Below are positions 154-423 of a stretch of DNA of 486 nucleotides, piece after piece. Every line of letters starts with the position of its first letter. Position 1 is the first letter of the stretch. Below the pieces are notes generated by a model. The model did no database searches. It saw nothing but the letters and a program-made list of their open reading frames with translations, and was not told the origin of the DNA. Source of the DNA: a phage; sequence record EF517052.1; one strand, written 5' to 3'. The position numbers and the translations under genes were made by a program.

Positions 154-423
154 ATGTCTAACGTAGCTGAAACTATCCGTCTATCCGATACAGCTGATCA
201 GTGGAACCGTCGAGTCCACATCAACGTTCGCAACGATAAGGCGACTATGGTTTACCGCTGGAAGGACTCTAAGTCCTCTAAAAATCACACTCAGCGTATA
301 ACGTTGACAGATGAGCAAGCACTGCGTCTGGTCAATGCGCTTACCAAAGCTGTCGTGACAGCAATTCATGAAGCTAGTCGCGTCAATGAAGCTATGGCTA
401 TCCTCGACAAGATTGATAACTAA
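154..423 (+). CDS. Small phage protein, 89 aa (MSNVAETIRLSDTADQWNRR...AMAILDKIDN); T7 gp4.5-like, reported Lon protease inhibitor / anti-toxin-antitoxin counter-defence factor
   Basis: ATG at 154 is preceded by a strong SD, and the frame is open to TAA at 421-423 (270 nt). The provided ORF track starts at GTG 61 in the same frame, but that start has no RBS and overlaps the upstream gene's 3' end, so ATG 154 is preferred. The 89-aa length and the position directly upstream of a T7-type promoter match T7 gene 4.5 as I recall it. The functional assignment comes from the literature on T7 gp4.5, not from the sequence. Confidence 0.85.
   Translation: MSNVAETIRLSDTADQWNRRVHINVRNDKATMVYRWKDSKSSKNHTQRITLTDEQALRLVNALTKAVVTAIHEASRVNEAMAILDKIDN

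Follow-up and report, generated by a model that had tools for sequence, protein, structure and literature searches.

Phage proteins that stop toxin release during infection include T4 Dmd, which acts against RnlA/LsoA, T4 Alt, which ADP-ribosylates MazF, and gp4.5 of phage T7 (PMC8230891). Dmd and Alt target the toxin itself, whereas gp4.5 reportedly acts at an earlier step, on the protease degrading the antitoxin, and has no sequence relationship to the two T4 proteins. When E. coli expresses the Shewanella toxin-antitoxin (TA) system sanaTA, T7 deprived of gene 4.5 is blocked (PMC3985639, PMC8230891), and gp4.5 interacts with the Lon protease (PMC3985639, PMC8230891, PMC11482910). One source is hedged in its wording that gp4.5 "might inhibit" Lon (PMC3985639); by doing so it would presumably prevent the Lon-mediated degradation of the antitoxin and hence the activation of the toxin (PMC3985639, PMC8230891, PMC11323111). 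According to a 2024 review, what the phage gains "remains to be defined" (PMC11323111).

A recent screen, described in a 2024 preprint, suggests that gp4.5 has additional or other targets, namely RADAR and CcdAB (PMC11482910). Gene 4.5 was needed more in strains carrying CcdAB, and plating in the presence of a RADAR system fell by about 70% once either gene 4.5 or gene 4.3 was deleted; general ATPase inhibition by gp4.5 is a speculation of the preprint authors (PMC11482910).

Gene 4.5 in the window

The DNA analysed here is a stretch of 486 nucleotides (the window), which is colinear with T7 positions 13431-13916 and identical to T7 at 478/486 bases (98.4% in a pairwise alignment). Megablast against 50,697 phage records gave 149 matches, the best of which are all T7 (98.6% over positions 1-484, which correspond to T7 13431-13914), and T7 is the closest complete phage genome in this collection. 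On the plus strand, the window contains an open reading frame (ORF) of 89 codons plus a stop codon, from the ATG at 154-156 to the TAA at 421-423, found both by reading the window and in a mechanical ORF list. It corresponds to gene 4.5, which the T7 RefSeq entry places at 13584-13853 and labels "not essential in T7". The Shine-Dalgarno sequence of the gene, AGGAG, is located by sequence reading at 141-145 on the same strand, 8 nt 5' of the ATG, and is the same in the T7 alignment. An earlier note on this DNA had described an 89-aa frame with an ATG start and a strong Shine-Dalgarno sequence; both are present, the frame at the coordinates that the note had given. Given the Shine-Dalgarno sequence, gene 4.5 would be expected to be well expressed.

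The product of the ORF is identical to T7 gp4.5 (NP_041980.1) at 85/89 residues (96%). Residues 1-89 align with positions 1-89/89 of the Pfam profile PF17574, "Inhibitor of toxin/antitoxin system, Gp4.5" (TA_inhibitor), with an E-value of 1.3e-58 and a score of 195.5 bits against a curated cut-off of 27; the product also matches phrog_2254 (E 3.7e-39), and an NCBIfam search gave merely one sub-threshold chance match. Because the full PF17574 profile is covered and the identity to T7 gp4.5 is 96%, the ORF at 154-423 is, on sequence grounds, a real gene.

Searched against about 5.8 billion proteins, the product retrieved 48 members of the family. The 49-sequence family alignment has 25 invariant columns, among them residues T7, I8, L10, S11, H22, V33-K37, and H45-R48 with the HTQR and VYRWK motifs, and all 25 are kept in the window protein. 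Its length of 89 aa falls in the family size range of about 87-105 aa. A 100% identical protein is deposited as ABR22869.1 / UniRef100_A9XKZ7 under the name "Escherichia phage T7" and forms a singleton cluster; a look-up of the exact protein among contigs gave no occurrence, leaving the GenBank/UniRef entry as its sole record.

The gene order in the window, gene 4.3, gene 4.5, and the promoter phi4.7, is that of the class II DNA-metabolism block of T7. T7 gp4.5 itself occupies the same position and has 89 aa, and the start codon, Shine-Dalgarno sequence, stop codon, and flanks of its gene are identical to those in the window; the window allele differs from it by four replacements (G28D, M49I, A67V, and G75S) and two synonymous changes, all of them G:C>A:T. 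The gp4.5 homologues of other Studiervirinae and related Autographiviridae belong to the same family and are natural variants with 45-92% identity, but their DNA differences from T7 mix transitions and transversions, unlike those of the window. Judged by its sequence, the window is a T7 derivative carrying T7's own gene 4.5 and not the homologue of another phage. The earlier note had proposed, from T7 gene order and gene size, that the product is a homologue of gp4.5. The comparison with T7 gp4.5 that it proposed (85/89 residues identical, with T7 as the best DNA match at 98.4% identity) now gives the identification the backing of an alignment, and the PF17574 match agrees with it; the term homologue has to give way to that of a mutated T7 allele. 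The T7-like context predicted in the note is likewise found, with the tail of gene 4.3 on the 5' side and phi4.7 on the 3' side.

Flanking elements: gene 4.3, an intergenic hairpin, and phi4.7

Upstream of gene 4.5, positions 3-134 on the plus strand hold the 3' end of gene 4.3 (last 43 codons plus the TAA at 132-134), as expected from the T7 annotation. The frame at 3-131 is identical to T7 gp4.3 residues 28-70 at 43/43 amino acids, carries one synonymous C>T change at position 89, and matches PF17565 (DUF5471; E 2.8e-27) as well as phrog_1950. In the 2024 preprint, gp4.3 together with gp4.5 is reported to counteract RADAR defence weakly (PMC11482910). Since both genes are reported to act against RADAR, these adjacent small genes may act together.

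The intergenic region between gene 4.5 and phi4.7 is predicted by RNA folding to form a hairpin with an internal loop at 424-473 on the plus strand (-23.1 kcal/mol, z -3.95, 0/200 shuffles as stable), at the position of the RNase III site R4.7. The hairpin is identical in T7, and the hairpin and the promoter are nearly invariant in 8 natural T7-like contigs. At E <= 1, Rfam gave zero matches across the window, including the hairpin at 424-473. R4.7 is listed among the T7 RNase cleavage sites (PMC6938266). With its stability, internal loops, and intergenic location, the modelled hairpin has the features expected of R4.7 and is a predicted processing site. The R4.7 coordinate, reportedly T7 13892 (Dunn & Studier, 1983), would correspond to window position 462, in the 3' internal loop of the hairpin. 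The 3' arm of the hairpin overlaps the upstream edge of phi4.7 at 468-473.

The T7 RNA polymerase promoter phi4.7 covers positions 468-486 on the plus strand (-17 to +2, from the T7 annotation), and the end of the window cuts it at +2; gene 4.7 comes after the window. Its core, CGACTCACTATA (-12 to -1), is exact at 473-484, its sole occurrence in the window, and is absent from 200 shuffles, so that the T7-type promoter which the earlier note had seen 3' of the ORF is indeed there. The full 23-nt T7 promoter consensus was unmatched with 3 mismatches allowed; phi4.7 is truncated by the window end and off-consensus upstream. Its annotated start (T7 13915) falls at window position 485, where the +1 base is A in the window versus G in T7. 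T7 RNA polymerase prefers G as the initiating base, although T7 promoters that initiate with A exist. Because of this preference, the polymerase may initiate less at a phi4.7 that has A in place of G at +1. A scan of the window found no sigma-70 promoter, and its one terminator-like match, on the minus strand inside gene 4.5, is at chance level.

Spectrum and origin of the differences from T7

Between the window and T7, 8 of 486 bases differ, and 8/8 of these differences are G:C>A:T transitions. Six of them lie in gene 4.5: C>T at position 198 (D15, synonymous), G>A at 236 (G28D), G>A at 282 (K43, synonymous), G>A at 300 (M49I), C>T at 353 (A67V), and G>A at 376 (G75S). The remaining two are the synonymous C>T at position 89 in gene 4.3 and the G>A at position 485, the +1 base of phi4.7. 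In the same 486 bp, 8 natural T7-like contigs from IMG/VR together show 127 substitutions compared to T7, which comprise 28 GC>AT changes (22%), 42 AT>GC changes, and 57 transversions. At a background of 22%, and assuming independent changes, the chance that 8/8 differences are GC>AT is 0.22^8, or about 5e-6. The C>T at position 89 is the sole variant of the 8 that also occurs in natural relatives (the T7-like IMG/VR contigs L006 and L009) and could be a recurrent or ancestral polymorphism. Short sequences of 23-36 nt carrying the variants gave no occurrence in IMG/VR; a 25-mer of wild-type sequence, in contrast, was found in 8 IMG/VR contigs.

Within gene 4.5, the ratio of nonsynonymous to synonymous changes is 4:2, which matches the nonsynonymous fraction (0.67) that GC>AT changes would give here without selection. 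Mutagenesis of T7 with nitrosoguanidine or hydroxylamine yields mostly GC>AT changes (PMC6042481). As all changes in the window are GC>AT and this class dominates after mutagenesis of T7 (PMC6042481), we infer that the window most likely stems from a laboratory lineage of T7 that had undergone chemical mutagenesis and in which the dispensable gene 4.5 changed neutrally. The mutated G's are preceded by a purine in 6/8 cases; we considered the 5'-purine bias of nitrosoguanidine as a signature and discarded it, 6/8 being too few to decide between nitrosoguanidine, hydroxylamine, and further agents that cause GC>AT changes. Given this mutagen-type spectrum, which informs on provenance and is not a biological discovery, the differences between the window and T7 should not be taken as natural variation.

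Alternative readings and the activity of gp4.5

Besides gene 4.5, the mechanical ORF list holds a 120-aa frame that starts with GTG (61-423, in the same frame as gene 4.5) and a 99-aa frame on the minus strand (181-480). The idea that one of these is the true coding unit has next to nothing to recommend it beyond that listing: the GTG extension (61-153) overlaps gene 4.3 in another frame, without a Shine-Dalgarno sequence and without homology support, and the T7 annotation of the region has no minus-strand feature. Moreover, the PF17574 profile starts exactly at Met 154 (1-89/89) and the homologues begin close to this residue; we rejected both frames as artefacts of ORF listing. A more substantial question is whether the allele at 154-423 is still active. 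The four residues that it has lost are common but not invariant in their family columns, about three-quarters of the members sharing them (G28 in 38/48 homologues, M49 in 38/48, A67 in 35/48, and G75 in 36/48), and its PF17574 score of 195.5 bits is 12 bits lower than the 207.6 bits of T7 gp4.5. By this comparison the window allele may be weakened, and its activity is uncertain. In the extreme case, the allele would be a crippled passenger, with four replacements that went unselected on a host without a Lon-dependent defence and with Lon binding weakened or abolished, and would have ceased to serve in counter-defence. The neutral 4:2 ratio and the "non-essential" label of gene 4.5 in the T7 annotation agree with such a history, as do the wide sharing of the changed columns and the occurrence of S75 in 0/48 homologues; in the structural model described below, G28 is part of the beta-turn 27-28, and the turn between the helices (74-76) contains G75. 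However, the other three replacements are found in some distant homologues (D28 in 3/48, I49 in 7/48, and V67 in 8/48), 25/25 invariant family columns are kept, the frame, start codon, and Shine-Dalgarno sequence are intact, and the AlphaFold2 model of the same sequence is confident. On balance we consider this passenger reading doubtful, though it deserves to be kept in mind.

The AlphaFold2 model of the window gp4.5 has a mean pLDDT of 84.6, and Foldseek matched it to an "inhibitor of toxin/antitoxin system" of Pectobacterium phage Q19 (E 1.8e-7, TM 0.84), which belongs to the same family and has the same predicted fold. A sequence search of the PDB gave no relative of gp4.5 (best E-value 0.3), and neither gp4.5 nor a complex containing it has a solved structure there. 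Weak Foldseek matches (E about 0.2, 6-20% identity) were obtained to proteins of the PC4/Whirly/Pur-alpha fold, including the PC4 homologue of phage T5 (PDB 4bg7); on the predicted model this likeness is one of shape and not of membership. A further reading is that the main activity of gp4.5 is not Lon inhibition, and that the protein is a broader inhibitor of host ATPases or of defence systems such as RADAR and CcdAB, or else a PC4/Whirly/Pur-alpha-like binder of single-stranded nucleic acids that goes with the adjacent replication genes. We regard this as improbable: the fold matches are weak, with identities of at most 20%, the motif of a beta-sheet plus helix is common, and the literature found reports no nucleic-acid binding of gp4.5, while the RADAR effect is less than 10-fold and comes from a preprint, and the CcdAB idea still passes through Lon. 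A variant in which gp4.5, with its predicted PC4/Whirly/Pur-alpha-like shape, binds single-stranded nucleic acids or acts on several host AAA+/ATPase targets (Lon, RADAR), and, as a separate matter, in which the window allele is a natural separation- or loss-of-function variant, appears to us a similarly long shot. If single-stranded nucleic-acid binding or several ATPase targets were true, "Lon inhibitor" would describe part of the role of gp4.5.

The reading that we prefer, with a probability of roughly 85%, is that the window carries T7 gene 4.5, known from the literature for evasion of Lon/sanaTA, as a copy from a mutagenised lineage. Identity, family, context, mutation spectrum, and predicted fold come from our analysis, and Lon binding and sanaTA evasion come from the T7 literature. 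As a class II (middle) gene, gene 4.5 is transcribed by T7 RNA polymerase; phi4.3, the nearest annotated upstream promoter in T7, lies just outside the window. According to the work on T7, the 89-aa gp4.5 binds the host Lon protease and presumably keeps it from degrading the labile antitoxin; sanaTA, a Lon-dependent abortive-infection TA system, would never be triggered, and the phage could finish its cycle. On ordinary laboratory hosts the gene is dispensable, and the mutated allele is probably still made. The earlier note had taken gp4.5 to bind and inhibit Lon; interaction with Lon and evasion of sanaTA are indeed published for T7, but inhibition is less firm than the note had put it ("might inhibit").

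As the note had also held, gene 4.5 is by its published role a counter-defence gene rather than a new system, and the gene and its reported anti-Lon/anti-TA role are already known from Pfam and reviews. The window is thus of little value as a discovery, and an allele with mutagen-type changes should not be presumed active. At the same time, the mechanism of gp4.5 is thinly known, with no structure, a hedged Lon inhibition, and hints at RADAR and CcdAB from a recent screen. For this reason, a map of tolerated and damaging substitutions in gp4.5 could help researchers.
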